From: Chiloscyllium plagiosum
Taxonomy: Eukaryota
NCBI RefSeq assembly: GCF_004010195.1
Contig: NC_057718.1
Coordinates: forward strand, 57,753,615 to 57,800,972
Reading direction: 5' to 3'
Length of the DNA: 47,358 nt
Shown: piece after piece, positions 1-47,358 of the stretch
How positions within the stretch are numbered: position 1 is the stretch's first letter
How the letters are laid out: the number at the start of each line of letters is the position of its first letter
Translations under genes and position numbers: made by a program
Notes under the pieces: model-generated
Told to the model about the DNA's origin: nothing
What the model saw: only the letters and a program-made list of their open reading frames with translations
The model's database searches: none

Positions 1-196
1 TTCATCCCCTCCCCCACTCACCTATTGTACTCTATGCTACTTTCTCCCCACCCCCACCCTCCTCTAGCTTATCTCTCCACGCTTCAGGCTCTCTGCCTTT
101 TATTCCTGATGAAGGGCTTTTGCCCGAAATATCGATTTCGCTGCTCCTTGGATGCTGCCTGAACTGCTGTGCTCTTCCAGCACCACTAATCCAGAG
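1..196 (+). mobile_element. 3' end of a Penelope-like element (pLTR) with a hammerhead-ribozyme core; cut by the window start
   Basis: CTGATGA (106-112), A, stem-loop GGGC-TTTT-GCCC (114-125), GAAA (126-129), then TATC. Followed by the tail GATGCTGCCTGAACTGCTGTGCTCTTCCAGCA, which resembles the tails at about 10050 and 18030. Confidence 0.75.
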
Positions 197-5589: not shown

Positions 5590-7157
5590 TCATTCATTCA
5601 TGGGAAGTGGGCATTGCTGGCTAGCCAACATTTATTGCCTGTCACTCGTTCCACTTGAGAAGGTGATGGTGACGTGCCTTCTTGAAACACTGCAGTCCAC
5701 CTGCTATGGGTCATCCACAATGCTGCCAGAGAGGGCATTCCCGGATTTCGCTCCAGCGACAGTAAGGAAGGATGATGTATTTCCAAGTCAAAATGGTGAC
5801 CAGCTTGGAGGGAAACTTGCAGTTGGTGGCGTTCCCATGTATCTGCCGCCCTTGTCCTTCCAGATGGAAGTGGTCATGAGTTTGGAAGGGGCTGTCTAAG
5901 GATGTTTGGTGAATTTCCATGGAGCATCTCATAAATAGTACAGACTACTGCTAGTGAGCTTTGGCAATGGGGGGAGTGGATGTTTGTGATATGTCACCAA
6001 TCAAGCAAGCTGTCCTAGATAGTGTCAAGCTTCTTGAGTGCTGTTGGAATTGCACCTAGCCAGGCGAGTGAGGAGTATTTCATCACACTCCTGAAATGTG
6101 GATGATTGATCAGCTTTGGGGAGTCAGGATGTGAGTTATCAATACAGTATTCCTACACTCTGACTACTCTTGTAGCCATTGTATTTATGTGCTGGGTCCA
6201 GTTGAGCTTCTGGTCAACAGTAACCCCAAGATAGTGTGGGATTCAGTCATGGTAGCACCATTGAATGCCATGGAGAGGTGGTTAGGGTGTATCTTATTGG
6301 TGATGGTCATAACCTGGCATTTGCATGGCGTGAATGTTATTTGCCACTCATCAGCCCAAGCCTGGATATTGTTCAGGTCCTATTGCATTTGGATATGGAC
6401 TGTTTCAGTATCTCAAATGGTGTTGAACACTGTGCAAGACTGGCAAACATCCCTACTTCTGACCTTATGATGGAGAGAAGGTTGCTGATGAAGCAGCTGA
6501 AGATGGTTGGGCCTAGGACACTACCCTGGGGAACTTCTGCAGAGATGTCCTGGAGCTGAGATGACTGACTTCTAATAACCATGACCATCTCTGTACATGC
6601 CAGGTATGACTTCAACCAGCAGGGAGTTTGCCCCAATACCTGTTGATTCCAATTTTGCTTGACTCCATCATGCCATACTCAGTTGAATTCGACCTTGATG
6701 TCAAGGGTTGTCACTCTCACCTCACCTCTGGAATTGAGCTTGATCCCCTGGTTTGGTGGCAATGGTTTAATGAGGGATATGCCAGGCCATGAGTTTACAG
6801 ATTGTGCTGGAGTGCGATTCTGCTGCTGTTGATGGCCGAGAGCACCTCACAGATGTCCAGTCTTGAGTTGCTCGATCTATTCAAAGTCTGTCTCATTTCA
6901 TATGTTGATAATGCTACACAACATGATGGAGGGTATTCTCAATGTGAAGGACTGTGCTATGGTCACTCTTACTGATCACTGTTAAAGACAGATGCATCTG
7001 CAGCCAGCAGATCGATAAGCATGAGATCAAACATGTTTTTACCTCTTATTGGTACCTTCGCTACCTGCTGCAGACCCAATCTAGCAGCTATGTCCTTTAG
7101 AACCCGACCAGCTTGATCAGTAATGTAGCTGCTGAACCACTCTTGGTGGTGGATATT
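5590..7157 (-). mobile_element. LINE family B (CR1/L2-group) 3' portion with RT remnants, internally deleted
   Basis: 3' tail ...CACTTCCCATGAATGAAT at about 5590. ORF 6373-6636 contains VPQGSVLGPTIFSCFI (RT motif). ORF 6969-7202 contains LQQVAKVPIRGKNMFDL (endonuclease end). Confidence 0.85.
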
Positions 7158-7929
7158 GCAGACATTATGACAACAGATGAACAGACACTGCACAACAATC
7201 ACCAGACAGGAATGTTCCCTCCCAGTCAGGGAACGCTTTAGTGGTCAAGGACATTCAGCCTCTGTAAGCATCCTAAAAGGTGATCTTTGAGATACACAAC
7301 AACGCAGAATCACCAAGCAGAAACCGTTTGCTAAGTTTCGTATTCATGAGGGTGACCTCAACTGTGATCGTGGGTGCATGTCATGCTACATATAGCTCCA
7401 CTATTCTGTGTTTGTAAATAATTCCTTATTGTTCTGTTTTGACCCGTTACCTGATAACTTGTGATTATCAATCTACCTTAATTATTTTGTAAAGTTTTTG
7501 ATTACTTTTTATTTTGGTTAGGCCCTCAGCATGCGACTCTGATACTTACTCATGTTATTCCAGCCATTTGGTTTGTCTCTATGACCATCTTATTTTTGAT
7601 TATTTGTAATTATTTCTCTGCCTTAATTAATTGGTTCATAGGTCATCCCTTTACTTGTTTATCAACTGTTGACACTTTACTCATGTTGTTTGACACTTGA
7701 TCACCTTCAAAGACTTGCTATTCAGCCTGTCAACACTCCACTCACATTATTTGCACTCATCTGTAGACTATCTTAATTACCTGGAATTATCTTGCCATTA
7801 TCTTTCTGCTTATATGTCCTGTACCCATGCCCCTTCGTCTACTTCACTTCAAGGTAAAATCTCTCCAAAAGTCTGTGATTTTAAATGAATCAGTCGGATT
7901 ATAACCCAGTGTCATGTGACTTCTGACTT
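7158..7929 (+). mobile_element. Penelope-like element 3' portion: GIY-YIG endonuclease C-terminal remnant, 3' UTR and decayed pLTR end
   Basis: 7159-7395 translates to QTL*QQMNRHCTTITRQECSLPVRERFSGQGHSAS...FAKFRIHEGDLNCDRGCMSCY, the typical Penelope ending. 7870-7929 (GGATTATAACCCAGTGTCATGTGACTTCTGACTT) resembles GGACTATAACCTGGTGTTGTGTGATTTTTAACTT at 44928-44961. Confidence 0.75.
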
Positions 7930-8100
7930 CCGATAGCTGTACAAGGTGTTGGTGAGACGACAACTAGAATTTTTCATGCAGTTTTGGTCTCCTTATCTGG
8001 GGAAGCATGTTCTTGTTATAGAGGGAGTAAAGCTAAGGGTTACCAGACTGGTTCCAGGGACGGTACGTCTGACATATGAGAAGAAATTGAATCTTTGGAC
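7930..8100 (+). mobile_element. CR1 ORF2 3' fragment
   Basis: LYKVLVRRQLEFFMQFWSPYLGK-type motif. Confidence 0.75.
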
Positions 8101-9997: not shown

Positions 9998-10093
9998 GGG
10001 AAGAAAGTCACTGGACTCGAAACGTTAACTTTGTTTTTCTCTCAAAAGGTGCTGCCAGACCTGCTGAGTTTCTCCAGCATTCTCTGTTTTTGT
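9998..10093 (+). mobile_element. Short Penelope-derived element with a decayed hammerhead core
   Basis: AGTC-ACTG-GACT stem, then CGAAACGTT and the tail GCTGCCAGACCTGCTGAGTTTCTCCAGCA. The CTGANGA box is lost. Confidence 0.6.
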
Positions 10094-11095: not shown

Positions 11096-14059
11096 CAACC
11101 TGAAGGCAGGGTCAGGTATCCTTTGGAACAGGGTGGGGTCAACATTTTTTGGAGGAGCATCATATGCCTTTTGAGATTATTAACTTTGGAGTAGAGTGTG
11201 CACAAAAGATGCATAAACCTCTTAGAACGAGCCTACGTGTCAAGAAGTGTCAAGCTGTCAAGAATTGTCAAGCGGCTTCAATCTTTCAAGAAATATTAAA
11301 CTGTCATGAAGTGCGATAGGCATTTCTTGTGTCTGAAAATTGGTGAAGTTGCAGAGATTGTCCCAATTCTATCCTGAAGTTGCCTCAATTCCAATCAGAA
11401 ATGGTCATAGATAGGCCAGGAAATCTGGTTCACAAGCGTAACAAATGAGATTGTTTCACAGTTTTGTAATCTCTTGAGACAAATTTCAGCTCTCAGGTCG
11501 GATAGAGTTCACACCAACCTATTAGACTAATATCTCTCACACCTTTATATTCCCATAAACAACAACAAACAGTTTCTCTGAGCAGATCTGTATCTTCCTC
11601 TGATCTGAAACTATTGTATGCTAAAAGACTAACACTGTTTTATTGTATGGGGGCTTTCACATTCAAGTTTGAACAGCTTTCTGTCATGGACTTTTTTAAT
11701 TACAGAAGATGGAGAACTGTATACTACTATATCAGCATTTAGAACTTTAAATCAAATACATGTACACTAAATCTGAAGAACGACTTCCTGACTAACAGAA
11801 CTTGTGATGCAAAATGTGGTGAGCATCTCCTGGACTTAATTGAATATTACAGCAGAGGAGAACACCAATTTTATGACCTTCACCAAAATGGCAAATAAGA
11901 ATTGTGATTTTTACAAAGTGCTTCTCTGTCAAAGTGAAACACACCAACTGATTTTAAATTAAATGTCCCCATTGGGCCATTGGTGACACAGTTAAAATAA
12001 TGTCTGGGCTCTCCTGCCTTCATGTCTTGATGTTAAACAACTCTTTTGAGGAGGCAAAATAACACCCAGAAGAAAAATAAAAACAGAAAATGCTGTAAAA
12101 CTTTATTTCAAACCTTTATTTCCAATCTCCAGTATCCACAGCTTTCGATATGGGAAATGGCGAGTCACTGAAACAAAAATGATCACGGGTCTGATGACAT
12201 CATCAGTATTGACACCCTGGTTAAACAACTCTGCAGAAACCAAGAAGAGACCTAGAGGAGAAAGAGTCCCATTGCATGGCTGCATCCTGTACCAGCACCT
12301 TAGGTACACTCAAATTTGGGAGGAGAGAGGATTAACTTGCATAGATTTGAGTATTAATTGATCAATTTTACTGCTACTTATATAACCTTTATTCATAACC
12401 ATTGATAAATGAGAGTTTTTTAAATTCATTATTTCTGTTTTATTTAGTGTTGCCGCATATTTTCTGTGAGTCCAAATAACATTTTAAATCTTTTTTTACC
12501 CCAGGGATGAAAGCATTTGTTTGAAACTAATGACTGCTAACAAAGCAAACCAAAAATTAGCTAGTGTCACAGAGATGAATAATGTAGACTTGATCAATAA
12601 TCAAACAAAATATTAAAGATGAATTCCTCAAAGTGTTAACCTTTACACATTATGAAGTGAGGAATAGAACTGTCATGAACAAATTGACTTTTCTCTTCTT
12701 GGACAGTTGGTTGAATCAGACATTCATAATTTGGCCACACAATGAATTGATGGAATATCATGTCTTAGGGTGATTCAATATTCAACAAATAATCTTTACT
12801 TATTAATTTTTGAATAAACTTATTAACAAAGTATATCATCGTGTTTTTATAAAAATGACAGCACACAAAAGCACAGTTGTCACAAAACCATTTCTGTTCT
12901 GTTTCGATTGTAATGCCTTCTGAAGAAATGAATAAATAATTACTGTCAACTGGAATTATTTGCCACAACTTTTTTGTCAGAGTCTCTCTTACATACATGC
13001 ATGTCATTGCAAAACTTCCCAGTCTGAAGTCAGTGTTATTTTTTACGTACATCATACTTTAAAACACAGACCAATATTTCTACTAATTTAGAGGGAAGGT
13101 CAGGGTTGATAACTGTACAATTGCCTCTGCCGCTGCTTTTACTACACCAGTACAACTGTTGGAGCAGGATGCAAATGTTTTCCAATCAGCCCTTTCTTGC
13201 AGGAGATTTACAACAAAAGACTAGCCACAGTAAAATAGAAAAAAATCAGAGTCCCTTTGCACTGGTTCACTGATGCTTGTTTAGATGCTGAAGGCAATGC
13301 ATTAAGAACTGATGGTGTCTGAATATTATCCAATCAGTTCCTGATGCAGTATCTGCGACATCAGAAAAACTGCTGTCACTGACTGAGGAGCTCAGAGTAC
13401 TTTATATTTACCAGCTGATTCGAGTGCAATGATCTCTATTCAATCTCAACCAAATAATGTGTTTCACATCTTTTATGATAAGCATTACATTCTTTGCGTG
13501 CAAATGCTGAAAGAAACCTCAATTTACACATATCAGGATAATAACAGTGATAAATGTGAAATGAAATCCTTTATCTGCCTACTATTCATATGTATGAATT
13601 ACAACAGGAAATCTACTGAGCAACTTACCCAGGAGTTTTTAAAGCTTCAGTACAATTGATCATCTGGAGCAAACTGCTCTAGAATTGCGAAATGTTTCAC
13701 TTTTGGTCAAGATTCTATTCAAATGCATTGACATAACGCTGAATGTTAAATCTTTCATGCATCAATCTGATCGGCCTGCAACTTTTTAAACTTAAACATT
13801 CCATTAAAAAATTATTTGATATATTTAGTTGTGGTAATCCTGTGCATTTTTATCAACACAGCTGAAAGTGAGTTTAATCACCACAAGGTAAATATTTATA
13901 GTCAGCGTCTTGTCTACCAGCGATGATTAACACAATTTTAAAATAACAAAATAAACTTCAGTAAACTGTACAGAAACATTTCTTGGTTACTTTAGACAAT
14001 AATCAGTTTTATAATAATTTTTAAAATGCACATTCAGATGAGTATGTATATCTGGGATT

Positions 14060-17000
14060 TTGGTTCAAAGTCAAGATTCAACCTATGTATCCTTTACAAG
14101 TTCAATTTTTGAGTTAATATCAGATTTAGACATTGACCTTGGGTAATGTGCTGCAGCTGCAGCGTGTAGGAGCTGCTGGACACCAAATTTATCCAGAGCC
14201 AAATCATCTGCAGTGTTCTCAGCTCAAGGAGCTTTGGAATTGAGTTGAGGAGCTGGATTCTGAACTGCAGATATTGTGTTACACCAGGAAAAGGGAAACA
14301 TACGTGGATAGTTTGCTCCAGAAGGTAGTCACACATCTCAGTCTAGGTAATTCAACTTCAAATTAGTCCATGGTCACAGACAGGATGCTGTGACTGCAGT
14401 TGAGGATGCAAGGGGTCATATTGGAACAACCTCAGCCCCTACAATTGGTCAACAGTTACGTGATTCTTGCAAGTTGAGTGGATGAGAGTAGAGACTGTAG
14501 AGAGAATGAGTGAACTGACCATAGCAGTGTGACACAGAGAGCTATTCAAGTGGAGGGAGGAAACAGTAATGTTATAGTGGTATGGGACTGTGTAAATAGG
14601 GGAATAGATGCGGTTCTGTCCAGCATGAGCTCCAAAGATTGTGTTGCCTGCCTGGTGCCATAGTTAAGAATATCTCCTCCGAAAGGAGATAATCTTAGAG
14701 GGGGACAGGAGCAACCCAGTTGTTATCATCCACATTGATACCAACAACATAGATGGAACTAGAAAGAGGTTCCGCTGAAAGAATTTTAACAGTTAGGAGT
14801 TAAATTAAAATGCAGAACCTCTGGGGTAAAAATCTCAGGATAACGAGTTGAACCGGGGTAAACTGTCATGGAGAAAATAAAGTGCAGGAGTTAATCTCAT
14901 GTTTCAGAGGTGTGGGTGGAATTGGTTTCAGTTTATTGGGCATTGGCACCAATATGGTAGAGTCGTAGAGATGTACAGCATGGAAACAGACCCTTCGGTC
15001 CAACCCCTCCATGCTGACCAGATATCCCAACCCAATCTAGTCCCACCTGCCAGCACCCGGCCCATATCCCTCCAAATCCTTCTTATTCATATACCCATCC
15101 AAATACCTCTTAAATGTTGCAATTGTACCAGCCTCTACCACATCCTCTGGCAGCTCATTCTATACACATACCACCCTCTGCGTGAAAAGGTTGCCCCTTA
15201 GGTCTCTTTTATATTCACTAAACCTCTCACCCTAAACCTATGCCCTCTAGTTCTGGACTCCCTGACCCCAGGGAAAAGACTTTGCCTATTTACCCTATTC
15301 ATGCCCCTCATAATTTTGTAAACCTCTATAATGCCACCCTTCGGCCTCCAACACTCGAGGGAAAACAGCCCCAGACTGTTCAGCCTCTCCCTATAGCACA
15401 AATCCTCCAACCCTGGCAACATCCTTGTAAGTCTTTTCTGAATCCTTTCAAGTTTCACAACATCTTTCCAATAGGAAGAAGACCAGAATTGCAAGCAATA
15501 TTCCAACAGTGGCCTAACTAATGTCCTGTACAGCTGCAACATGACCTCCCAACTCCTGTACTCAATACTCTGACCAATAAAGGAAAGTATACCAAACGCC
15601 TTCTTCACTATCCTATCCTACCTGCAACACCACTTTCAAGGAGCTATGAACCTGCACTCCAAGGTCTCTTTGTTCAGCAACACTCCTGAGGACCTTACCA
15701 TTAAGTGTATAAGTCCTGCTAAGATTTGCTTTCCCAAAATGCAGCACCTCACATTTATCTGAAATCCATCTGAACTCCATCTCAGCCCATTGGCCCATCT
15801 AGTCCAGATCCTGTTGTAATCTGAGGTAACCCTCTTCGCTGTCCACTACACTTCCAATTTTGGTGTCATCTGCTGCTCTGCCCTCATCAATCTTCTTTGT
15901 TACGTCTTCAAAAAGCTCAATCAAGTTTGTGAGACATGATGTTCCAGTCAGATGGGTTTCACTTGAACTGTGCTGGAACCAGTACTGTTGCAAATCAAAT
16001 AATGAGAGCTGTAGAGAGGGCTTTAAACTAGTTAAAAATGGTTGAGGAGGCTTGGAAGAGGGGCAATGCAGGATTACAAAGCACAAGGATATGGGAGCAT
16101 GGAGTAAAAGATTCTATATGAAACAGTGATCATTAAATGATAGATTTTATTATTTTTTTGTAAGTGACAACTTAGGTTGGAAACAACTATACTAAAAACT
16201 TACACAAGTGTAATAATGAAGAAATGACAGCAGAGTTAGCGGGAGTAAAGTGGGAAAAGAAATGTAGCAAAAAAGCCCTTGGAGGAACAGTGGCAGGGAT
16301 TTAAGAAAACAATTCATGACTCACAATCAAGATATATCCCAGTGAAGAAGAATGATTCTAGGAAAGGGATAAACCAAGTAAATGGATATCGGCCCCTTGG
16401 AACAGTTAAGTGAGTGGGCAACAACCTGGCAGATGGAATATAATGTGGGGAAAATGCGAGGTTGTGCTCTGTAGCAGAAAGAATAGAGGTGATGAATATT
16501 ATTTATTAAAAGAGACTACAGAGAGCTACAGAGAAGGATTTGGGAGCTGTCATATATAAAGCACAAAAAGCTAGCACACAAGTTCAACAAGTAATAAGAA
16601 AGGCAAATGGAATGCTGGCTTCGATTTCAAAGGGAATGAAGTATAAAAATCAGAAAGTCTTGCTAATACTATGCAAGCCACTATTTAGACATGCCTAGGA
16701 CACAGCAAAAGTTTTGGTTCCCATTATCTAGGGAAATATACACTGACATTGGAGGTAGTCCAAAGAAGGTTGATCCCCAGTTTGGAGATGTCTTCTTATG
16801 AGAAGATTGGGCCTGTATTTGTTGGCGTTGAGAAGAAGGAGAAATAATCATATTATAAAAAAAGAGATACTTAGGGGGCTTGACAGGGTAGATGATGATT
16901 TTGTGGGAGAGTCTTGGATCAAAGGGCATAATCTCATAGTAAAATGTTTCTCATTGAGGACAGAGATGAAGATGAATTTCTTTTAACGGGCCTTGTGAAT

Positions 17001-17215
17001 CTGTGGAATTCTTTACTGCAGAGTGCTGTAGAAGTTGGGTCGTAAAGTGTGTTCAAGGCAGATAAATTTTTAATTAATAAAGGGAATCGAGTGTTATGGG
17101 AAAATGTAGGAAAGTGGAGTGGAGAGCTACCAGTGCAGCCATGATCTCATTGAATAGAAGAGCAGACGTGATGGGTGAAATAGTCTACTTCTGTTGCGAT
17201 GTTTTATGACCTTAT
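14060..17215 (+). mobile_element. Old CR1 LINE with ORF1 (esterase-like) remnants and deleted ORF2 to the 3' end; hosts a young CR1 insertion
   Basis: About 14570-14750 gives VIVVWDCVNRGID, LCCLPGAIVKNIS and PVVIIHIDTNNI. After the insertion it resumes with DGFHLNCAGTS...AVERALN* (about 15950-16030). ORF2 C-terminal remnants lie at 16400-17100. Confidence 0.75.
14959..15940 (-). mobile_element. Young CR1 (HER1-like) LINE, 5'-truncated, with an internal RT deletion
   Basis: ORFs 15198-15608, 15613-15798 and 15799-16086 closely match the copy at 45408-46920. 3' end TTTCCATGCTGTACATCTCTACGACTCT. Confidence 0.93.
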
Positions 17216-17844
17216 TGGCATCATGCACCGAAAGAAAAGGTTTAATTTAAGAGCCTTCCAGATGGTGAGAAGGGCCATAGTTAGCCAAAACACAATAATT
17301 CACTCTTGATGTCTGGGCTATCAGAGACTAGGCTTAAAAATGAGGTGCGTATCAGAGTTCTGTAGAAATCATGAAATGTGGAAGTCCATGAGAATGACCC
17401 AAGACATTTCAACTTCTGATGGGCAATTCCCTTGTTCCTGGGAGTCAAAGTGAATATGTCTAGCTTTAAGTTACAGTTAGAGACTTGGGACTGAGCTACG
17501 TACATTAGAAACATTAGACAGATTAAAATTTAGTGTCTTGCCTGGGTAATTACACAGCTGTCCCAACTCAATCACTCACACTGACACATCCGCCTACCCT
17601 CCTGATCACCTTGATTCCTCTTCTGATCAGCAAGCCAGCCCCTGATATTATGACTACCCTCCCAAATCGGTGAGCGGGTAGGCTGAAAGTAACTCTATCC
17701 CTACTCATACCACCCAACTGCTCACTGTCTGACCACACAACTACCCTCTTGACCCAACCTAACTACCATCCTGAAATGAACTGATTGACTGTCTGTACAC
17801 GCCTGCACACCCACCTACCCATTCATCCAACAACCTCAACCTTC

Positions 17845-18645
17845 CTCGAAAGTGGTATCGAAGGTAGACTGGACGGTGAAGAGGAATTTTGGCATATTTT
17901 CCTTCATCGGCCAGAGCATTGAGTATAGGATTAAATAAACTGAAAGAACTACGAATACTGTAAATCAGAAATCCTTCTGAGGAAGGGTCACTGGACCCGA
18001 AACATTATTATCAATTTCTGTTCATAGCTGCTTCCAGACCTGCTGACTTTTTTCATCAATTTATGTTTTTGTTATTGAGCGTAGGAGTTGAGATATCATG
18101 TTATGGCTGCACAACTCACTGGTAAGGCCACATTCGGAGTACTGTGCCCAATTCTGGTTGCCCTGCCATATGAAGGATGTTATTAAACTGGAAAGGGTGC
18201 AAAACATATTTCCAAGGATGTTACCAAGACTGAAAAATTTGAGTTATAAGTAGAGGCTGGGACTTTTTTTCTGTGGAGCATAGGAGGCTGTGGAGTGACA
18301 TTGTAAAGGTTTGTAAAATCATGAGGAGCATAGATAAAGTGAATAGCCAAGGTTAGTTCCCCAGCGGAGGGGAGTTCAAAGCTAAAGGGCAAAGATTGAA
18401 AGTGAGAGGGGAAGGATTTAAAAAGGGACTTGAGGGACAGAGAATGGTGTTTATATGGAACGAGCTACCAGAGGAAGTGGTAAAGGTGGGTAAGATTACA
18501 ACATTTTGACAGGAAAATGGAGAGGAAAGGTTCAGAGGGAAATAGGCCTATGCAGGCAAATGGGCTGCTTCAGTTTGGGAAACCTGGTCGGCATAGATGA
18601 GTTTAGCAGAAGGTTTCCATTCTGTATGACTTTATGACACTGTCA
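17845..18645 (+). mobile_element. CR1 LINE 3' portion, interrupted by a hammerhead-bearing element
   Basis: FIGQSIEYR / SWDIMLWLHNSLVRPHSEYCAQFW-type motifs, with a (TATGAC)-like tail at about 18625-18650. Confidence 0.85.
17931..18073 (+). mobile_element. Short Penelope-derived element with a hammerhead core, flanked by a TSD
   Basis: CTGAGGA (17977-17983), A, GGGTC-ACTG-GACCC, GAAA. TSD ATTGAGTATAGGA (17918-17930) / ATTGAGCGTAGGA (18074-18086). Confidence 0.8.
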
Positions 18646-18754
18646 CTATGACACCCACTTATATTTGACTCCTAGTGTCATAGAAAGGGGATGGAGTTCT
18701 CCAAGGAACACTCTGTGCTATGTTTCTGGGACAGCTGGTTTTGGAAGAGCTTGG

Positions 18755-18843
18755 TAGAACAGCTTCTTCCTCGCTGTTATGAGAAACAATACTTTTCACT
18801 GTATCTCCACACGTGTCAATGATAAATCAAATTGAATCAAATG
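18755..18843 (+). mobile_element. Rex1/Babar-like LINE 3' end remnant
   Basis: AACAGCTTCTTCCTCGCTGTTAT (NSFFxAV), then ACTTTTCACTGTATCTCCACACGTGTCAATGATAAATCAAATTGAATCAAAT, homologous to the tail at 39293-39345 (minus). Confidence 0.6.
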
Positions 18844-18999
18844 TGCAGTGTTGAGTTGGGGGAACTTTTGAGTGACACAGCAATTTTTGAGTGAGGATAA
18901 TGATTGCCACCCATGGAAGTGGCAATTTCATTACATTACTAGAAATTTGGTGTGTGAGAGGTATAAACTGTGCTTGAAATTCCTTTGTCCATTTTTATA

Positions 19000-19920
19000 G
19001 TTATTCATGGGATGTGACAGTTTCTGGATAGGCTAGTATTTATTGTTGTTCCCCAATTAACCTAGAGAAGGTGATGGGGAATTTCCCTCACAAACTGCTG
19101 CAGTCCTTAGGGTCTCGAAGTTACAGGTTTGAAGGGAGCCTTGGTAAGTTGTTGCGATATATCTTGTAAATCACCCATTGCTGCCACTGTCCATCAATGG
19201 TATAGGGAACAAAGCCATTAGATAGGGATACCAATTAAACAGATTGCTTTGTCTTTGTCCTAGATGACGTTGGGTGTCTTGGGTGTTGTTGGAGTTGTCC
19301 TCATTCAGGTAAGTTGGGAGTATTTTAGTGCACTCCTGCTTGTGCCTTGTAGATGGCAGACAGGCTTTTGGGAGTCAGAGTAAGTTAATTACTACAAAAT
19401 TTTCAGCTTCTTACCTGTGTTTTTTGCCACAGTATTTTTATGGATAGTCTAGTTCAGTTTATGGTCAATGGTAACCCCCAGAATGTTGAACATAGGCAAC
19501 ATAAATTTCACTGAGTTTGAAGGAGCACTGGTTAGATTCTCTAATGTTGAAGATGGTCATTGCCTGACACTTATGTGGTGCAAATGTTGCTTGCCCTTTA
19601 ACCTCGCAAGTCTGAATGTTGTCTAGGTCTTGCTGCATTTGCCAATTAACTGCTGAAATATTTTTGAGTTGGGAGTGATGCTAACCATTGTACAATCATT
19701 AGCAAACATCCCTACCACTGACATTGTGATGGAGGGAAAGTCATTGATGAAGGAGCTGAAGAGGGTTCAGATACCATCTTGAGGAACTGTCACAATAACA
19801 TCCTTGGCTGACCTCCAACAACCATGACCATCTTCCATCATGCTACATTTGACTCCAACCAGTTGCCAGTATTCATCCCGATTCCCGCTGACTCCAGTGT
19901 TGATAAGGGTCCTTGATCTT
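19000..19920 (-). mobile_element. LINE family B 3' portion, decayed
   Basis: Colinear with 5590-6660 (TTCATGGGATGTG..., GGTCAATGGTAACCCCCAG..., GCAAACATCCCTACCACTGAC). Confidence 0.8.
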
Positions 19921-21067
19921 TGCTGGTTTGATCAATTCCAGAAGAATTGCACTGAAAATAACTGCAGTCTCTGTTATTTAACAATCAGCATCATAGTTCT
20001 CTTGACACTAAGTTACTGTACTTAGCATAATCCCAGTGACCACTGTGGGGGGACAATATTGGACACTCACAGTTGCCAGCTGAGATTAAGCCAACTTACA
20101 GCAATTGTTGTTAGTCTTGAAAAATAAAGTATCAAGTCAGTGGACTTCCACTTTTACATATGCCTGAAGTTCTGGCCATTCCCATATAGCACCATGCATA
20201 TCCAGCAGATAATGGAGATTGTTGAGTAAAGGCTTCAGGATCCTGGAGCACCCTGGTGAAGATGTCAGAGTTGCATGTCACTGACCATAAATAACAGTGT
20301 GGGCAGATTTCTAACCTAGTAAAGAGCACTCTAGAATGAGTCAGATTCCTGATACACATGACCATGAATATATGAAGCTCAATTAGTCCTTACAAAATGT
20401 AACCATAAAGGTTAGAGCCTGGCATATCCTTAGCAGTCAAAAAGTTGTTGAATCTTATTGGATGAAGCCATTTTGAGAAGGTCCTACCCACAAACCTTTG
20501 GATGTCCTCCAGACATTTTGGAAAAATAATGTCTTCATTCATCTCAATGAAGATGTCATTTGGTAAAGAAACTAAAACTTTACATTGAAAACAACACTTA
20601 AAACAGTAAAAACTTCAACAACTTTCAGCTTCAGTAATGCAACAAGAAGCTTTAAAACAAAGAATCTAGTTTTAAATCAACAAATAATTCAGCAAGGCAA
20701 CAAAATGCATAATATAAGAAGATCAAAATCCTAACAATTAACATCCAAATCGCAAATAATATTGAAACTTCAAGTGCCTGTAAGGTCTCCATAGTCCCAG
20801 AAGCCCACAAAGCTGCTCTGTCAGGAGGAAGATGACTGGTGGTGGCTTGCATTGACTCAGAAACCACTGCCGCACATGGATCTGACAGGCAGCAGGAAAA
20901 TGTAGCGGGAACATAGCTGAGGAAGTGTCAGCCATTTTGGCTATGTGCAATACTTAACACTTTTCTGTGGAAATTTCTACTGGCCATTATTCAATCAGCT
21001 TGGATGCCCATTTGGAATTTGAATTGCTTGTTTTGTTTCTACTTTCTTTCTTAGATTTCCTAAAGTC

Positions 21068-21826
21068 CAAGATGGCAACGGAGTAGTGACGCTGCATCCA
21101 AGGTCTTGGCCCAGGGCTTATCTGCTTCCGTCTGCTTTCTTTGTTTCTGCTTTTATTTTTTAACTTCTGCTTTTCACTTTTCCTTTTTTCTTTCATTTTA
21201 TTTTGCTTTAATGCCTTTTCGGTGTCTTCAGCAAGGCTAGACCGGGCCCAGCCATTTGAGCATGTGCGGCAGCAGTGACAAGAGTCGGCTCCTTGGGGAG
21301 AGTGAGCTCTCAGAGAGATCTTGGCAGTAATTAGGGTGGGCCCAGCGGTGAGAGAATGGCACCGGAGAAAGCGACTTTGACGTTGATGGGCCCAGCGCAG
21401 GACTCGATGTGGTGGAAGCGGCACCGCCTTTCAAGAGTTTGGTGACAGCAGGGCACCTCTGTGGTCGAGGTCAGTCAACTGCAGTGATGTGGTTGGCCAG
21501 AGTCATTACTCCTGGTGGATTGACGGGACCAGCGATTGCAGCAGGGGTGATGTGGTAGGCCGGGTATGGTACACCTGGTGACACATCGCTGGCAGCCCCA
21601 GAGCGGGACTCCTGGAATGGACCGTGATGTGTTGGTGGGCCCGAACCCATTGTGGAGACACTCCTCCCTCCCACCAAATGTCAAGAACACAAGAAGGGAG
21701 GAAGAATTCTGTTGTAGTCATATTCTAGTTATATGTTAATATCTTCTGTACCTCAAAATGGTGCTGGGACGTGACAACATACTTTTTACTGTATTTATTT
21801 ATTAAATAAAAGTTCAATTCAAGTCA
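21068..21826 (+). mobile_element. Non-autonomous element with a Rex1/Babar-type tail (copy 2)
   Basis: Head CAAGATGGCAACGGAGTAG (21068-21086), T-rich block, CpG-containing GC-rich body, tail ACTTTTTACTGTA...AATAAAAGTTCAATTCAAGTCAATT. Confidence 0.65.
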
Positions 21827-23539
21827 ATTTGATTGGTATCTGATATAAATTTAATCTTTTTGCATTGGTAAAATTTCTGATTTCAAGAATAACATAAATT
21901 AGGAATAGTCATGATCCAATCATTGAACCTTGAGCCAACCCACTAAATGCTTTAACTCACTAACAATGTCACTCCTCTGACATTCACATCTTGATTTCCA
22001 CTTTCAGACCCTTTCTTATCCATTCCCATGGTTTACTCCAAATTCTTGGAATTTAACCGATAGACTTTAATGTAGCATGTTATCAAGCAGATTTTGGAAT
22101 TCCATGTTGTAGGCTACTCCACATAAGAGAGTGAAGGGAAGTTATGCATACTTGTTTAAAAAATAATGATTGAACAATAAGTTTTAGATTGAATTAGCTA
22201 ACACTACTGAAAATTACATGACTATGTATTCAATATAGTACAGAAAAGTTCAGCAGCCATTCTGGGTTGTATTTTCAGATGTTTCAAAATCTGTCAATGT
22301 CAGTGAAATTTTTTTTGCATGTTTTGGTTATATCTGCTAAACTAGGTGAATGTGATAAACGTTTCAATGAAGTAACTTAGACATGGCATTGAAGTGTAAT
22401 GGATTACACTTAAGCATCTTATTATTTGATTATTTGATTCTATTTTACTCAGATCTACTGTGTGCAACATTTTGCATCAATTCACAGCATTACAGTTGGA
22501 ACATGATGTAAATCTTCAAACTTAAGCAGAGAGGATGAAATGCTTAGTTTTCCCTCTAATTAAAATCTGATCTTGAAATTGGAATCTAAGAAATTGCCGA
22601 TTTCAAATCTCAATGTTTCTGTGAATGTATCAGCTCTTTTATAATGGCATTCTCCCATTTTGTTTTTGAAAAAATATTATTACCTTTGCGGTTATTAAAT
22701 TGCGGTTATTATTACCTTTGCGGTAGTTTAATAGGGTTATTCTCATTAAGAAGCTGTTAGTAGAGACAACAGACTACAGAATCTCTGTAGACCATTGTGA
22801 GATTGTGACAATACTTCACAGTTGCCTGCAGAGATTATCTAGTCTGCAGCTATCCAGCAGTTAGAGCGCACAACACATTCTTTTCCTTAGAAAAAAAAAT
22901 TATGTCATTAAATTACATTCTGGAAGCAACCAACACATTCAATTTTGTTGTATTTTGCCAACCTCCTTTCAATCAGTGACACATTCTTGTACTGTTAAAA
23001 TTTCATTGAAGAATGTGTGTTTTCAGAAAATTAAGGTTAAGTCTGCCTCCATTTAGCTAGATTGGCCCACAGCGGTTTACCAGCCATTGAGCCATTGATT
23101 GGCTCAGAGTTGAACTTTTCACCCCAACTGGGAGATGGACTCGGCTTCCAAAAGTTGCTGGCTATCATATGGCTGGCATCCCAATGGTGCCAAATGGGAG
23201 CAGTGGACACTAATGGGATAACAGATAGTCCTCAACATCCAGGAATCATGTTGCCATGCACTCAGGTAAATCCAGACATTCACCAGGTACAGGCTGACAG
23301 GTCCTGAGAGGGGCATGAGGCTCATGTACAATGGAGTGAGAGGGGTAACAAACAGAGGGGAAAATTACCAAAAGCATGAGCTCCAATTTGTACTGGGTGT
23401 GGACATTTCCATCTGCTGGTAAAATACCATGAATTAGCCATGATTGCTTGCCCCACCACCAATAAAAGTCCTGCACTGGCGGATAGGAAATAGACACTGC
23501 TCCACCATGGCAACTGAGTTAACACATTACAGCGGGTTC

Positions 23540-27441: not shown

Positions 27442-27561
27442 AAGATTCAGTCATGGTTTTCACAAGAGAATTTAATAATTATAGAACATAGAACATGTAC
27501 TGTTCTATGTTCTATGTTCTATAATTATTAAGTTCTCTTTTGAAAACCACGACTGAATCTT
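27442..27561. repeat. 54-bp inverted repeat with a CR1 (TGTTCTA)n tail at its centre
   Basis: Arms 27442-27495 and 27508-27561 with 3 mismatches. Direct repeat ATAATTATTAAG at 27433-27444 and 27521-27532. Confidence 0.9.
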
Positions 27562-27761
27562 GCCACACACTCAGTTAATGCACCCCAGGTCCTAACTACT
27601 TGCTATGTAATAATGTTTTACTCTATGTTGCCTTTGGTTAGTTTGTTATTCACTTTAAGTCTGTGTTTTTTTACACTTCTTGGCTGTGTAACCAGTGGGA
27701 ACAGATTTTTTCTCTTAATGCTATCCACACTGCTCATGATTTTAAACACCTATATCAAATA

Positions 27762-28057
27762 GCGGTTAGCACTGCTGCCTCACAGCACCAGAGACCCGGG
27801 ATCAATTCCCGCCTCAGGCAACTGTCTATGTGGAGTTTGCACATTCTCCCAGTGTCTGCATGGGTTTCCTCCGGGTGCTCCGGTTTCCTCCCACAGTCCA
27901 AAAATGTGCTGGTTAGGTGAATTGGCCATGCTAAATTGCCCGTAGTGTTAGGTGAAGGGGTAAATATAGGGGAATGGGTCTGGGAGGGTTGCTTTTCGGA
28001 GGGTCGGTTTGGACTTGTTGGGCCGAAGGGCCTGTTTCCACACTGTAAGTAATCTAA
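27762..28057 (+). mobile_element. HE1-type SINE, slightly 5'-truncated
   Basis: Nearly identical to 3387-3683; ends CACACTGTAAGTAATCTAA. Confidence 0.92.
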
Positions 28058-28446
28058 AAAATCTCTCAGCCTTCTGTAAGGAGAACAGTCCCAGTTTCTC
28101 CGGTCTATCTTCTCCTCATCCCTGGCACTGACTTTATGAATCTTTTCATCATTCTTTTGAAAGCCTCCACATCCTTCCAAATGTGGAATCCCAAATTGAG
28201 CATGACACTCCAGTTGAGGCTGAAAAAATGCCTCATATTCAATACCTTCATAGTCATATTTATTCATTTATATTGGTGGATACATGGATCACAGAGGTTA
28301 GTTTGTACATACAGCAAGTGATTAGGATGGAAATGGAATCTTATCATGTATTTCGAGAGCATTGTAACATAAAAGTAAGGAAGTGTTGCTTTGGCTGTAC
28401 AGGACATTGGTGAGACCACATCTGGAAGTTTGTCATCATTACCGAA

Positions 28447-29363
28447 CAAGATGGCAGCGGAGTAGCAGGGCTATGTAAGCGCTTCTGAGCTTGGGGGCTT
28501 GTCAACTCCCATCTGTTTTCTTTCTATTAACATTTGCTCTTTTTCTTCTTCTTTAATTTTTGTTTCTCAGTTTTCTTTTCTTCCAAACCTTTTGCAGCAG
28601 GTTAATTGGAATTGGCACAGCAGCAAGAGTGGAACGTGTGTGGAATGGCGGCAGCCTTCTGGCGGTTTGAGTAGTGGCAGCAGACATGGCTCCTCTGGGC
28701 AATTGGAGGCGGCAGCAAGGATATCCTCCTGGTGTTTGGGGCCAGCGGTGGTGGCGGTTGTGGCAGGCTGACTGAGACTTCAGGCCGTGGCTAGGCTTGG
28801 GTGCCTGTGTTGATCATTCCAAAAAGCTTTATGAAGATAAGACTTAGACTTTGAGATCTGAACATTTTTCTTACCTTTTGTTTTTTGTTTAATTCTGCTG
28901 TTTTTTTTTGAGATTCTGGTTTTATAACCAAGGTGGTACTAGGGAACAGCAACTTGAAATTAGATTAGATTACTTACAGTGTGGAAACAGGCCCTTCGGC
29001 CCAACAAGTCCACACCGCCCCGCCGAAGCGCAACCCTACCCATACGTTTACCCCTTACCTAATACTACGGGCAATTTAGCATGGCCAATTCACCTGACCT
29101 GCACATCTTTGGACTGTGGAAGGAAACCGGAGCACCCGGAGGAAACCCACGCAGACACAGGGAGAATGTGCAAACTCCACATAGTTAGTCGCCCTGAGGC
29201 GGGAATTGAACCCTGGTCTCTGGCGCTGTGAGGCAGCGGTGCTAACCACTGTGCCACCGTGCCGCCCACGGTGTACACGTGTACACTTTTCACTGTACTC
29301 ATGTATTCCTATACTTGAGCACACATGACGATAAAGTCTAATTCTAATTCCAATTCTAGTTCT
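28447..29363 (+). mobile_element. Non-autonomous element with a Rex1/Babar-type tail (copy 3), carrying a nested HE1 SINE
   Basis: Head CAAGATGGCAGCGGAGTAG (28447-28465; 18/19 identical to 21068). Tail ACTTTTCACTGTAC...ATGACGATAAAG followed by (TAATTC)-like repeats. Confidence 0.7.
28959..29267 (-). mobile_element. HE1-type SINE, full length
   Basis: Reverse complement starts GGGCGGCACGGTGGCACAGTGGTTAGCACCGCTGCCTCACAGCGCC and ends ACACTGTAAGTAATCTAATCTAAT. Confidence 0.94.
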
Positions 29364-30314: not shown

Positions 30315-31070
30315 GGTAGTTCAGAGAAGGTTCACCAGATTTATTTCAGGATGAAAGGGTTGTCGTATGAGGAGTGGTTGAATAACTTGGACTTTTGCTA
30401 GCTGGAATTCAGAAGAATGAGGGGCTCAGTGGTTAGCACTGCTGACTCATAGCGCCGGGATCTAGGTTCAATTCCACCCTTGGGCAACTGTCTGTGTGGA
30501 GTTTGCACATTCTCCTGGTGTCTGCATGGGTTTCCTCCAGTTTTCTCCCACAGTCCAAAACGTGCAGCTAGGTGGATTGGCTAAGAGAAATGCGGGGTTA
30601 TAGGGTGGGGAGTTGGTCTGGGTGGGATGGTCTTTTGAAGGGTTGATCTGCACTTGATGGGATAAATGGCCTGCTCTTCCACACTCTTGGGATTCTCTGA
30701 TCTGATTGAGGTATATAAAAGGGATTGACAAAGTGAACGTTGAACAGATGTTCCCCCTTGTGAGGCAGTCTTGAACATGAGATCATAGACAAAGAGTGAG
30801 AAGAGGTAGGTTAAAAACTGAGATGAGGAGAAACTAATTATCTCTGAGGTTTGTGAATCTGTGGAACTGCCTCAGAGTGCATTAGAGGCAGAATCAATCA
30901 ACTGATTCAAGAACAAAATAGATATGTCTCTGATGAAAAGTGGGATAAAGGATTATAGGGAGCAAATGGTAGACACCAGAATAAGATCAGTCATGATCAT
31001 GTTAAATGCTGGAGCAGGTATGAAGAGTTGAATTGACTACTCCCGCTCCTAATTTCATTGTTCCTATGTA
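30315..31070 (+). mobile_element. CR1 LINE 3' portion with a nested HE1 SINE
   Basis: VQRRFTRFISGMKGLSYEEWLNNLGL...RRMRG continues after the SINE as DLIEVYK. The 3' UTR ends CTCCTAATTTCATTGTTCCTATGT. Confidence 0.85.
30423..30698 (+). mobile_element. Diverged HE1-type SINE
   Basis: GGCTCAGTGGTTAGCACTGCTG...GGTTCAATTCC...TGTGTGGAGTTTGCACATTCTCC...CTTCCACACT. Confidence 0.88.
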
Positions 31071-43342: not shown

Positions 43343-44761
43343 AACAAAGAACAAAGAACAAAAAAAATTACAACACAAGAACAGACCATTCGGTCCTCCA
43401 AGCCTGCGCTGATCTATTTCCTCTATCTATACCTGTTGCCTATTTTCTAAGGATCTGTATCCCTCTACTCCCTGCCCATTCATGTATCTGTCCAGATATA
43501 TCTTAAATGATGCTATCGTGCCCACCTCTACCACCTCTGCTGGCAGTGCATTCCAGGCACTCACCACACTCTGCGTAAAGAACTTTCCATGCATATCTTC
43601 CTTAAACTTTTCCCCTCTCACCTTGAACTTGTGACTCCTAGTAATTGAGTCCCCACTCTGTGAAAAGTTTCTTGCTATCCACCCGGTCTATACCTCTCAT
43701 GATTTTGTAGACCTCAGTCAGGTCCCTCCTCACCCTCCATCTTTCTAATGAAAATAATCCTAATCTACTCAACTTCTCCTCATAGCTAGCACCCTCCATA
43801 CCAGCCAACATCCTGGTGAACTTCCTCTGCAACCTCTCCAAAGTATCCAGATCCTTTTGGTAATGTGGCAACCAGAACTGTACGCAGTATTCCAAATGTG
43901 GCCAAACCAATGTCCTATACAACTGTAACATGACTTGCCAACTCTTGTACTCAATACCCCGTCCAGTGAAGGAAAGCATGCCGTACGCCTTTTTGGCCAC
44001 TCAATCGACATGCATTGCCACTTTCAGGGTACAATGGACCTGAACATCCAGATCTCTCTGTACACCAATTTTCCCCAGGGCTTTTCCATTTACCGTATTG
44101 TTTGCTCTTGAATTGGATCTTCCAAAATGCATCACCTTGCATTTGCCCGGATTGAATGCCATTTGCCATTTCTCTGCCCAACTCCTCAATCTATCTATAT
44201 TCTGCTGCAACCTTCAGTCCCCTTCACTATCTGCAACTCCACTAATCTTAGTGTCATCTGCAAACTTGCTAATCAGACCGCCTATACCTTCCTTCAGATC
44301 ATTTACGTATATCACAAACAAAAGTAGTCCCAACATGATCCCTGTAGAACACCACTAATCACAGTTCTCCATTTTGAGAAACTCCCTTCCACTACTATTC
44401 TGTCTCTCGCTACCCAGTCAGTTCTCTATCCACGTAGTTAGTACACTCTAGACCCCATGTGGCTTCACTTTCTCCATCAACCTACTATGGGGAACCTTAT
44501 CAAAAGCATTACTGAAGTCTATGTATATGATATCCACAGCCCTTCCCACATCAATCAACTTTGTCATTTCCTCAAAGAATTCTATTAAGTTGGTAAGACA
44601 TGACCTTCCTTGCACAAAACCATGATGCCTATCACTGATAGGCCCATTTTCTTCCAATTGTGAGTAGATCCTAATCCTCAGTTTCTTCTCCAGCACCTTT
44701 CCTACAACTGATGTCAGGCCCACTGGTCTATAATTACCTGGATTATCCCTGCTATCCTTCT

Positions 44762-44966
44762 GAAATGATTTGGAGATGCCGGTGTTGGACTGGGGTGTAC
44801 ACAGTTAAAAATCACACAACACCAGGTTATAGTCCAACAGGTTTAATTGGAAGCACACTAGCTTTCGGTGATCACCTGATGAAGGAGCGTCGCTCTGAAA
44901 GCTAGTGTGCTTCCAATTAAACCTGCTGGACTATAACCTGGTGTTGTGTGATTTTTAACTTTGTAC
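44762..44966. mobile_element. Palindromic Penelope-derived element with a hammerhead-ribozyme core
   Basis: 71-bp inverted arms 44796-44866 and 44897-44967 (2 mismatches). TSD ATCCTTCT at 44754-44761 and 44967-44974. Confidence 0.88.
44873..44907 (+). ncRNA. Minimal type I hammerhead ribozyme motif
   Basis: CAC, CTGATGA (44876-44882), A, stem II GGAGC/GCTCT, GAAA (44897-44900), self-complementary AGCT, putative cleavage triplet CTA, then GTG pairing with the upstream CAC. Confidence 0.65.
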
Positions 44967-45407
44967 ATCCTTCTTAAACAAAGGGACAACATTAGCAATT
45001 CTCCAGTCTACTGGGACCTCATCCGTATTTAAGGATGCTGCAAAGATATCTGCTAAGGCCCCAGCTATTTCCTCTCTCACTTCCCTCAGTAATCTGGGAT
45101 AGATCCCATCTGGACCTGGGGACTTGTTCACCTTAATGTCTTATTGAATACCCAACACTTCCTCCCTCCTTATGCTGACTTGACCTAAAGTAGTCAAACA
45201 TCTATCTCTAATCTCAGCATCTATCATGTCCCTCTCCTTGGTGAATACTGATGCTAAATACCCATTAAGAATCTCACCCATTTTCTCTGACTTCACGCAT
45301 AACTTTCCTCCTTTGTCCTTGAGTGGGCCAACCCTTTCTCTCATTACTTCTTGCTCTGTATATATGAATAAAAGGCTTTGGGATTTTCCTTAACCCTGCT
45401 TGCTAAA

Positions 45408-46920
45408 GATGTCTTGAAATGGTTAAAGGTGGATAAATCCCCAGGACCTGATCAGGTGTACCCGAGAACTCTATGGAAAGCTAGAGAATTGATTGCTGGG
45501 CCTCTTGCTGAGATATTTGTATCATCGATAGTCACAGGTGAGGTGCCGGAAGACTGGAAGTTGGCAAACGTGGTGCCACTGTTTAAGAAGGGCGGTAAAG
45601 ACAAGCCAGGGAACTATAGACCAGTGAGCCTGACCTCGGTGGTGGGCAAGTTGTTGGAGGGAATCCTGAGGGACAGGATGTACATGTATTTGGAAAGGCA
45701 AGGACTGATTCGAGATAGTCAACATGGCTTTGTGCTTGGGAACTCATGCCTCACAAACTTGATTGAGTTTTTTGAAGAAGTAACAAAGAAGATTGATGAG
45801 GGCAGAGCAGTAGATGTGACCTATATGGACTTCAGTAAGGCNNNNNNNNNNNNNNNNNNNNNNNNNNNNNNNNNNNNNNNNNNNNNNNNNNNNNNNNNNN
45901 NNNNNNNNNNNNNNNNNNNNNNNNNNNNNNNNNNNNNNNNNNNNNNNNNNNNNNNNNNNNNNNNNNNNNNNNNNNNNNNNNNCAGTTAGTAAGTTTGCAG
46001 ATGACACCAAAATTGGAGGTGTAGTGGACAGCAAAGAGGGTTACCTCAGATTACAACAGGATCTAAACCAGACGGGCCAAAGGGCTGAGAAGTGGCAGAT
46101 GGAGTTTAATTCAGATAAATACGAGGTGCTGCATTTTAGGAAAGCAAATCTTAGTAGGACTTATACACTTAATGGTAAGGTCCTCAGGAGTGTTGCTGAA
46201 AAAAGAGACCTTGGAGTGCAGGTTCATAGCTCCTTGAAAGTAGAGTCGCAGGTAGATAGGATAGTGAAGGTGGCATTTGGTATGCTTTCTTTTATTGGTC
46301 AGAGTATTGAGTACAGGAGTTGGGAGGTCATGTTGCGACTGTACAGGACATTGGTTAGGCCACGGTTGGAATATTGCATGCAATTCTGGTTTCCTTCCTA
46401 TCGGAAAGATGTTGTGAAACTTGAAAGGGTTCAGAAAAGATTTACAAAGATGTTGCCAAGGTTGGAGGATTTGCGCTACAGGGAGAGGCTGAACAGTATG
46501 GGGCTGTTTTCCCTGGAGCGTCGGAGGCTGAGGGGTGACCTTATAGAGGTTTACAAAATTATAAGGGACATGGATAGGATAAATAGACAAAGTCTTTTCC
46601 CTGGGGCCAGGGAGTCCAGAACTAGAGGGCATAGGTTTAGGGTGAGAGGGGAAAGATATGAAAGAGACCTAAGGGGCAACTTTTTCAGGCAGAGGGTGGT
46701 ACGTGTATGGAATGAGCTGCCAGAGGATGTGGTGGAGTCTGTTACAATTGTAACATTTAAGAGGCGTTTGGATAGGTATATGAATAGGAAGGATTTGGAG
46801 GGATATGGGCCGGATGCTGGCAGGTGGGATTAGATTGGGTTGGGATATCCGGTCGGCATGGACGGGTTGGACTGAAGGGTCTGTTTCCATGCTGTACATC
46901 TCTAGGCTCTATGACTCTAT
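45408..46920 (+). mobile_element. Young CR1 (HER1-like) LINE, 5'-truncated, with open ORF2 on both sides of an N gap
   Basis: KVDKSPGPDQVYPRTL...QHGF...YMDFSK, gap, KFADDTK...RRLRGDLIEVYKI...WNELP...GRWD* (stop at 46833). No stops in the sequenced portion; (CTATGACT) tail. Confidence 0.95.
45842..45982. other. Assembly gap (141 N)
   Basis: Run of N characters. Confidence 0.99.
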
Positions 46921-47249
46921 ATTTCATGACCCCTTTTAGCCCTCTTAATTCCTAATTTCAGATTGGTCCTACTTTCTTGGTATTCTTCCAAAGCCTTATC
47001 AGTTTTCAATCACCTAGACTTTATTTATGCTTCTTCTTTCCTCTCAGCTAGTCTCACAATTTCACCTGTCATCCATGGTTCCCTAATCTTGCTATTTCTA
47101 GCCCTCATTTCCACAGGGACATGTCTGTCCTGCACTTTAATAAACCTCTCTTTAAAAGCCTCCCACATATCAAATGTGGATTTACCTTCAAACAGCTGCT
47201 CCCAATCCACATTTCCCATTTGTTTGGTATGGTTGGCCTTCTCCCAATT

Positions 47250-47358
47250 TAGAACATAGAACATAGAAGAATACAGCGCAGTACAGGCCCTTCGGCCCTC
47301 GATGTTGCGCCGATCCAAGCCCACCTAACCTACACTAGCCCACTATCCTCCATATACC
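47250..47358 (-). mobile_element. 3' end of another CR1 LINE, running out of the window
   Basis: (TAGAACA)n tail, then TACAGCGCAGTACAGGCCCTTCGGCCCTCGATG. Confidence 0.8.

Follow-up and report, generated by a model that had tools for sequence, protein, structure and literature searches.

The insert at 44765-44966 of the window (47,358 nt of the Chiloscyllium plagiosum genome, contig NC_057718.1) is very likely a single insertion product of an endonuclease-bearing (EN+) Penelope-like element (PLE), cut down to its terminal repeat (pLTR) and arranged head-to-head as one inverted and one direct copy. This is an unremarkable case of a known type of insertion, and the family that left it is a very common Penelope-type element. 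The long hairpin of the insert was most likely built at insertion and not copied as a MITE, because other copies of the family are joined at many different points. The features of the locus are the following.

43427-45389, minus strand: decayed CR1-type LINE ORF2, the host, whose frame is split by the insert just ahead of its reverse transcriptase (RT) domain
44754-44764, plus strand: left copy of the target-site duplication (TSD), 11 bp, its first 8 the same as in the right copy and followed by the family end at 44765
44765-44796, minus strand: Penelope-type tail, on the left arm only, with A or C at 24/32 sense-strand positions and its outer end at the long 3' end of the family
44797-44868, minus strand: inverted pLTR arm, carrying on its minus strand the hammerhead half with GAAA and the cleavage site, but neither CUGAUGA nor stem II
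44867-44876, no strand: junction palindrome GGTGATCACC, centred on 44871-44872
44871-44966, plus strand: direct pLTR arm, beginning 5 nt before CUGAUGA and ending 4-5 nt beyond the main short 3' end of the family
44873-44907, plus strand: minimal type I hammerhead motif, matched by descriptor
44967-44977, plus strand: right copy of the target-site duplication, from contig layout and sequence comparison

The original prediction placed a 205-bp insert between 8-bp repeats, which holds in so far as ATCCTTCT stands at 44754-44761 and again at 44967-44974 with 205 nt separating the copies. The duplication is better read as 11 bp (44754-44764 and 44967-44977, 10/11 identical with one mismatch), and the family end found at 44765 in public contigs sets the insert at 202 bp. 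The A at 44765 is assignable to the insert or to the left duplication copy, and the A at 44967 also matches the family sequence, a 1-nt microhomology at the right border. The split reading frame that had been described was confirmed. The host LINE, which we take to be CR1 from its peptide motifs, regains the frame ANVVPLFKKDSRDNPGNYRP once the insert and one duplication copy are excised, and its downstream piece (the next 101 codons) matches Pfam RVT_1 (E=2e-11), Pfam giving RVT_1 only. Joints that skip 213 nt were seen in all three contig sets introduced below and represent CR1 sequence without the insert; we rejected them as an empty allele since CR1 paralogues would give the same joints.

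Three DNA-type public contig sets (80,189, 61,600 and 87,009 records) were aligned on 44560-45159, and the results given here come from the best 18 of 1,472 loose ends, the best 15 of 559 joints and the best 24 of 223,550 pieces, two of the runs having incomplete counts. One raw RNA run aligned on the same stretch gave 0 reads, a result that carries no weight on expression. Depth over 44760-44979 is mostly 10-100x that of the CR1 flanks in the three sets (a summed depth, not a copy number), and the repeat whose end module lies here has a very high copy number. Among the best 18 of 1,472 loose ends, unrelated flanks adjoin 44765 in 529, 322 and 490 contigs (flank agreement 0.36-0.37), 44803 in 699, 409 and 586 contigs, 44804 in 379, 210 and 304 contigs and 44962 in 214 contigs of one run, the agreement of the abutting unrelated sequence being 0.35-0.37 overall. 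Two 3' ends, separated by about 38 nt, are preferred in the family. The long one coincides with the left border of the insert; we place the short one at about 44801-44805, mirrored at 44958-44962, because this copy bears a private base at 44802. Past 44967 the family sequence continues into the same tail, and past 44856 it continues through the antisense hammerhead with C at the position of 44896. Together these ends and continuations therefore delimit an insert at 44765-44966 with an 11-bp duplication and a one-sided tail at 44765-44796. This tail had gone unnamed in the earlier reading; its 32 nt have no mirror in the right arm, and the stem-loops predicted for it are no better than those of shuffled sequences (z -0.65 and 0.82). 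Pattern scans of metagenome and viral contigs gave 0 matches, and 2 genome and 1 metagenome pattern-scan matches, sharing only 20-21 nt, were dismissed as chance.

The two arms form the hairpin that had been predicted from arms of about 71 bp and a 30-nt spacer: 44793-44866 and 44897-44970 are 96% complementary over 74 nt, with 30 nt between them. Either strand of the insert folds into a long hairpin (predicted 126-133 kcal/mol; z = -18.6, with 0/200 shuffles equally stable). Counted exactly as a mirror, 44797-44868 and 44895-44966 make 72 pairs, of which 44802/44961, 44837/44926 and 44867/44896 are the 3 mismatched ones (95% interval of the rate 1-12%). Each of the three departs from the family letter and both arms are affected, as neutral drift would produce, and the arms and the duplication have drifted since insertion. 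An assembly fold-back artefact is hardly conceivable here, even though no junction-spanning piece is found among the best 24 of 223,550 and a 141-N assembly gap lies 870 bp off, since a chimera would yield identical arms and no TSD where we find 3/72 arm differences, a tail and a gap on one arm only and a mismatched duplication.

The head-to-head inversion that had been proposed, and the palindrome opening the spacer, are both present, GGTGATCACC occupying 44867-44876 around a centre at 44871-44872. The left arm is the mirror of 44871-44966 less a single 20-nt gap, which takes CUGAUGA and stem II out of the antisense arm and, with the family C at the position of 44896, falls between two GG dinucleotides on the family antisense strand. 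A loss of about 20 nt from the left arm, as originally suggested, is supported by the family copies and the C. punctatum locus, which retain those bases; it is favoured, if not proven, over truncation plus filler, the choice turning on two bases (44869-44870) and on the stop at GG. In the version without a deletion, the left cDNA would have stopped at 44868 and been joined to the sense arm by two filler bases, leaving a palindrome by chance. We consider this unlikely, for the filler would need to equal the mirror dinucleotide (1 in 16), with the stop also landing on a mirror-matching GG (jointly about 1 in 256, by our estimate), although other joints among the best 15 of 559 do link a sense arm from 44871-44874 to a short antisense arm (44812-44823), two of them with 2 filler letters.

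Eight of the 15 joints listed (best 15 of 559), and two more, tie a left-arm point to a right-arm point, at about 10 different pairs of places. In four joints among the best 15 of 559 the antisense arm ends at 44812-44823 and the sense arm, like that of the insert, sets in 2-5 nt ahead of CUGAUGA, at 44871-44874. These four asymmetric joints lie in single contigs at a depth of 270-551, versus 6-55 for the listed pieces (best 24 of 223,550); some junction forms may be multi-copy, or they may mark recurrent hot spots. The query's own sense arm starts at 44871 and attracts joints there, two of the four having just 2 letters between the arms, and near-symmetric joints could be library fold-back chimeras. 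Bin 44860-44879 is the shallowest inside the element, 3-14x below bins 44800-44859 and 44880-44899, and because this holds in all three contig sets the junction of the insert is not the family norm; no contig piece spanning that junction was found among the best 24 of 223,550 pieces. Contigs running from the short sense end at 44962 back to the long antisense end at 44765 were also observed (17, 2 and 4 in the three sets; best 15 of 559 joints), which suggests tail-to-tail neighbours, or tandem or circular forms of head-to-head units.

MITEs are short, palindromic and flanked by TSDs. The insert differs from them in that the inverted repeat at its left end is not terminal, its centre varies between copies and it derives from a retroelement. 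A MITE-like family sharing this centre, one outcome entertained in the original prediction, is not supported by the contigs, whose listed joints (best 15 of 559) lie elsewhere and whose centre bin is the shallowest. A copy with this very junction would align unbroken and so would be absent from a list of joints. We thus find it quite improbable that the hairpin is a mobile, MITE-like non-autonomous PLE derivative, transcribed and reinserted with its centre intact. Its retained tail end could act as an RT start, yet a hairpin of 126-133 kcal/mol would presumably make a poor template for RT, and no second copy of it occurs in the 47-kb window. Four other junction forms reach a depth of 270-551 in single contigs (best 15 of 559 joints), but junction positions vary widely among the same joints and the centre bin 44860-44879 is shallow in all three contig sets. 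Non-autonomous PLE derivatives are known, in the portions of the literature available, from MRC1 (PMC8557442) and from animal retrozymes (bioRxiv 10.64898/2026.07.22.740005). In a wider form to which we attach equally little credence, some shark head-to-head PLE stubs, this one included, would be mobile palindromic, protein-free elements in their own right, with a sense arm from 2-5 nt before the core and an inherited junction. The basis for such stubs is the four junction forms at that depth and the 44962-to-44765 joint in 17, 2 and 4 contigs (best 15 of 559), and a class of retro-mobilised MITE-like palindromes was not found in the literature searched.

The Penelope-like origin originally proposed is supported both by the family ends in the contigs and by a protein match. 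Residues 82-126 of XP_072410591.1 (P0001) from C. punctatum share 71% identity with the window's antisense frame 44765-44899, this protein being the sole match in the protein search at longer lengths; the search at near lengths gave no match, and a PDB sequence search with the same protein gave 0 matches. XP_072410591.1 is a predicted protein, possibly spliced, in which the undeleted arm is followed by a PLE-type RT. GIY-YIG (PF01541) was found in 26/103 longer relatives of this RT and was above the cut-off in 2/4 rescanned relatives. The closest full-length relative, P0002, is 65% identical to the RT in P0001 and carries a CX4CxxC linker, which the available text of PMC8557442 gives as a mark of Neptune and Nematis; the Neptune clade is defined by a CX2-5CxxC linker between RT and EN together with RT phylogeny. 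Taken at the level of sequence, the terminal repeat would belong to an element encoding an RT with a C-terminal GIY-YIG, while the insert itself has no ORF. The RefSeq entry for XP_072410591.1, an 'uncharacterized protein', joins an inverted pLTR and a truncated PLE RT by read-through and is probably an annotation artefact. Elsewhere in the window, a C-terminal remnant of a PLE endonuclease lies at 7141-7392 (+; 47% to P0002, E=5e-16), and about 450 bp past it 7843-7943 (+) is a decayed relative of the terminal repeat, a borderline match whose score was reached by 1 and 3 of 1000 shuffles.

The hammerhead motif that had been placed in the spacer and right arm was borne out by a strict minimal-hammerhead descriptor, which matched once in the window, at 44876, and not at all in 100 Markov-1 random windows. 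Stem I is CAC/GUG (3 bp), CUGAUGA occupies 44876-82 and is followed by a bulged A, stem II is formed by 44884-88/44892-96 and GAAA stands at 44897-900, with a palindromic AGCU replacing helix III and the cut predicted after 44904. The core elements of a minimal hammerhead (min-HHR), namely CUGAnGA, stem II, GAAA, UH and stem I, are all present. A scan of the Infernal type, which the original prediction had put forward as a check, did not bear it out, as the Rfam hammerhead models gave no match at the insert at gathering score or at E<=10. The T at 44896, where the family has C, went unremarked earlier and turns the first stem II pair (10.1-11.1, G44884 with T44896) into G-U. A G-U pair at 10.1-11.1 would be expected to lower hammerhead activity. 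The G10.1-C11.1 pair is termed highly conserved in metazoan PLE hammerheads in the text available of PMC4209133, which also reports min-HHR monomers as inactive and dimers as weak in vitro; a measured effect of G10.1-U11.1 was not found in the literature, where only conservation is described.

In folding predictions, imposing the hammerhead fold carries a penalty of 24 kcal/mol in the whole insert, against 3.7 kcal/mol in the right arm alone, and 44897-44904 (GAAA and the cleavage site) are paired with a probability of at least 0.99 in the predicted fold of the insert. The ribozyme in this copy is probably silent, because the conserved G10.1-C11.1 pair is G-U and the hairpin sets the ribozyme fold back by 24 kcal/mol. 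The earlier view that GAAA and the cleavage site are hidden in the hairpin thus stands, but the mutually exclusive folds that it envisaged as a switch do not: across the whole insert the predicted probability of the ribozyme fold is near 0, and no CUGAnGA occurs on its minus strand. As modelled, the motif is buried and mutated, with no ribozyme/dsRNA switch, and the hammerhead, an ordinary passenger of the family, is most likely inactive here. A structure selected by the host, be it such a switch or a hairpin for small RNAs within the host transcript of miR-216/217, is very improbable. The insert does lie about 22 kb upstream of the minus-strand miR-216/217 cluster and gives a long hairpin from either strand, but it sits within a decayed LINE, has no CUGAnGA on the miRNA strand and differs from the family by scattered private mutations, one of them in the most conserved stem II pair. 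Rfam miRNA matches at the insert were below gathering score, reflect hairpin shape only and were rejected.

As to how the two arms came to face each other, we regard a route through two nick-primed cDNAs as evenly balanced between right and wrong. On this route, the RT/GIY-YIG protein would make two nicks in a CR1 copy, one per strand and 11 bp apart, of which one would prime cDNA from the long (tail) start and the other from near the short start, both on uncleaved RNA. An uncleaved template is indicated because, relative to the cut predicted after 44904, the sense arm extends 34 nt further upstream. Both cDNAs would stop at a common point 5 nt before CUGAUGA and be joined via a 2-nt AT overlap, and the left arm would lose its 20 nt between the two GG, with an RT jump across stem II or a later deletion from an unspaced palindrome as the cause. 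The protein of PAc (Poseidon of Anolis carolinensis) provides a precedent in the available sections of its description (PMC11167929), where it cuts and extends both strands, RT starts at two sites bounding the tail and hammerhead cleavage is not needed. Two points count against the PLE insertion reading as a whole: the right arm ends 4-5 nt beyond the main short end and not on it, and the link to an RT is one predicted protein, possibly spliced.

Snap-back is a possible, more tentative account, in which the left nick would prime a single cDNA that begins at the tail start, reaches the 5' end of the RNA, folds, copies itself and stops 32 nt short, the 20-nt gap being a later deletion. Junction palindromes are interpreted as self-priming in the accessible text of PMC3846280, and both arms have matching subfamily letters, each keeping 2 nt at 44905 that some family copies lack. 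The position of the right end, away from the main short end and at the 1-nt microhomology, also fits snap-back. However, the arm that bears the tail is the one without the 20 nt, so that the right arm is no copy of the present left arm; the centre has no loop, and the PAc protein extends both strands in vitro (PMC11167929, same sections).

The head-to-head pLTRs with a palindrome, the one-sided tail and the TSD by which EN+ PLE insertions are recognised are all found here. In the text available of Arkhipova et al. 2013 (PMC3846280), Pen2a_Av and Pen3a of Adineta vaga have an inverted and a direct pLTR, a junction palindrome, a one-sided 31-bp tail and a TSD of 8-10 bp, and the insert resembles these units in its head-to-head pLTRs, junction palindrome, 30-40-bp tail at one end and TSD. 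The same form is drawn as typical in the passages seen of PMC8557442 (Craig et al. 2021, Fig. 2 legend) and PMC8969392. Unlike the Adineta units as there described, the insert has no ORF, is only 202 bp as a whole unit, has an 11-bp TSD and has lost the catalytic half of its antisense hammerhead to the 20-nt gap. Its motif shares CUGAUGA, the bulge before stem II, the short stem I and the palindromic 15.2-16.2 in place of helix III with the metazoan PLE min-HHRs of Cervera and de la Pena 2014 (PMC4209133), whose accessible text also describes solo motifs from truncated PLEs and mentions opposite-strand pairs 100-700 bp apart. In contrast to those hammerheads as given there, the 10.1-11.1 pair here is G-U and only one complete motif is left.

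Like PAc in the available sections of Frangieh et al. 2024 (PMC11167929), the family has two 3' ends bounding an A/C-rich tail, and its copies extend beyond the hammerhead cut site, as an uncleaved template predicts. Within the limits of those sections it also differs from PAc. The PAc ORF starts at stem II and includes the tail, whereas here the frame opened by the ATG of the core closes at a stop 8 codons on, and an ORF seems to begin where the tail ends, judging from 5 consensus letters. No significant stem-loop is predicted for the tail here, and PAc is a Poseidon element while the closest full-length RT relative, P0002, bears the Neptune/Nematis CX4CxxC linker. The non-LTR retrozymes of animals, reported for one chondrichthyan in the available part of the preprint by Li, Clavereau and Pollet (bioRxiv 10.64898/2026.07.22.740005), resemble the insert in being non-coding, pLTR-derived, furnished with a type I hammerhead and found in a vertebrate. 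They are, however, described there as head-to-tail tandems with at least 2 complete hammerheads, whereas the insert is head-to-head with one; lacking the tandem structure, the retrozyme-like family that had been raised as an option is not supported. A description of this shark family or of 200-bp head-to-head units was not found in the running text of the literature searched (PMC6155905 included).

Alone, the single insert means little, being one decayed insertion of known form within a LINE that is itself dead. Taken in numbers, stubs of this kind could decide whether PLEs gain their inverted arm through a second nick-primed cDNA or through snap-back, since some 200 bp of each display the junction, the TSD and both outer ends. 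Genome-wide, they also give rise to long perfect hairpins, and they leak into gene models, as in the read-through of XP_072410591.1.

Several other features of the window were recorded. The host LINE at 44506-44765 and an opposite-strand LINE copy at 45582-45841 make an inverted pair with 71% identity, and the 141-N gap at 45842-45982 follows the second copy, 870 bp from the insert. A 143-bp insert sits in a LINE ORF at 17931-18073 (+); its duplication measures 13 bp (11/13), and its hammerhead-like core, at 17977, does not pass the strict descriptor. There is a 76% relative at 10007-10093, and an inverted tail at the front of the 143-bp insert found no confirmation in the window. At 106-130 (+) there is a hammerhead-like core with stem II that belongs to another repeat family and is truncated where the window begins. 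The precursors of miR-217 and two miR-216 lie above the Rfam gathering score within 13278-22845 (-), the insert being 22 kb upstream on their strand, and a miR-216/217 host transcript is described in the text available of PMC6668398. The cluster by itself marks the genome as that of a vertebrate, and the repeat's match to C. punctatum points to a shark. A palindrome at 27442-27561 has 55-nt arms (95%), a 10-nt loop and AGAACAT repeats with no hammerhead, part of it matching 47246-47275. Finally, 27761-29250 and 30423-30559 hold an inverted pair of repeats of about 300 bp, about 92% alike and 0.9 kb apart, with a third copy near, that are SINE-like by look.
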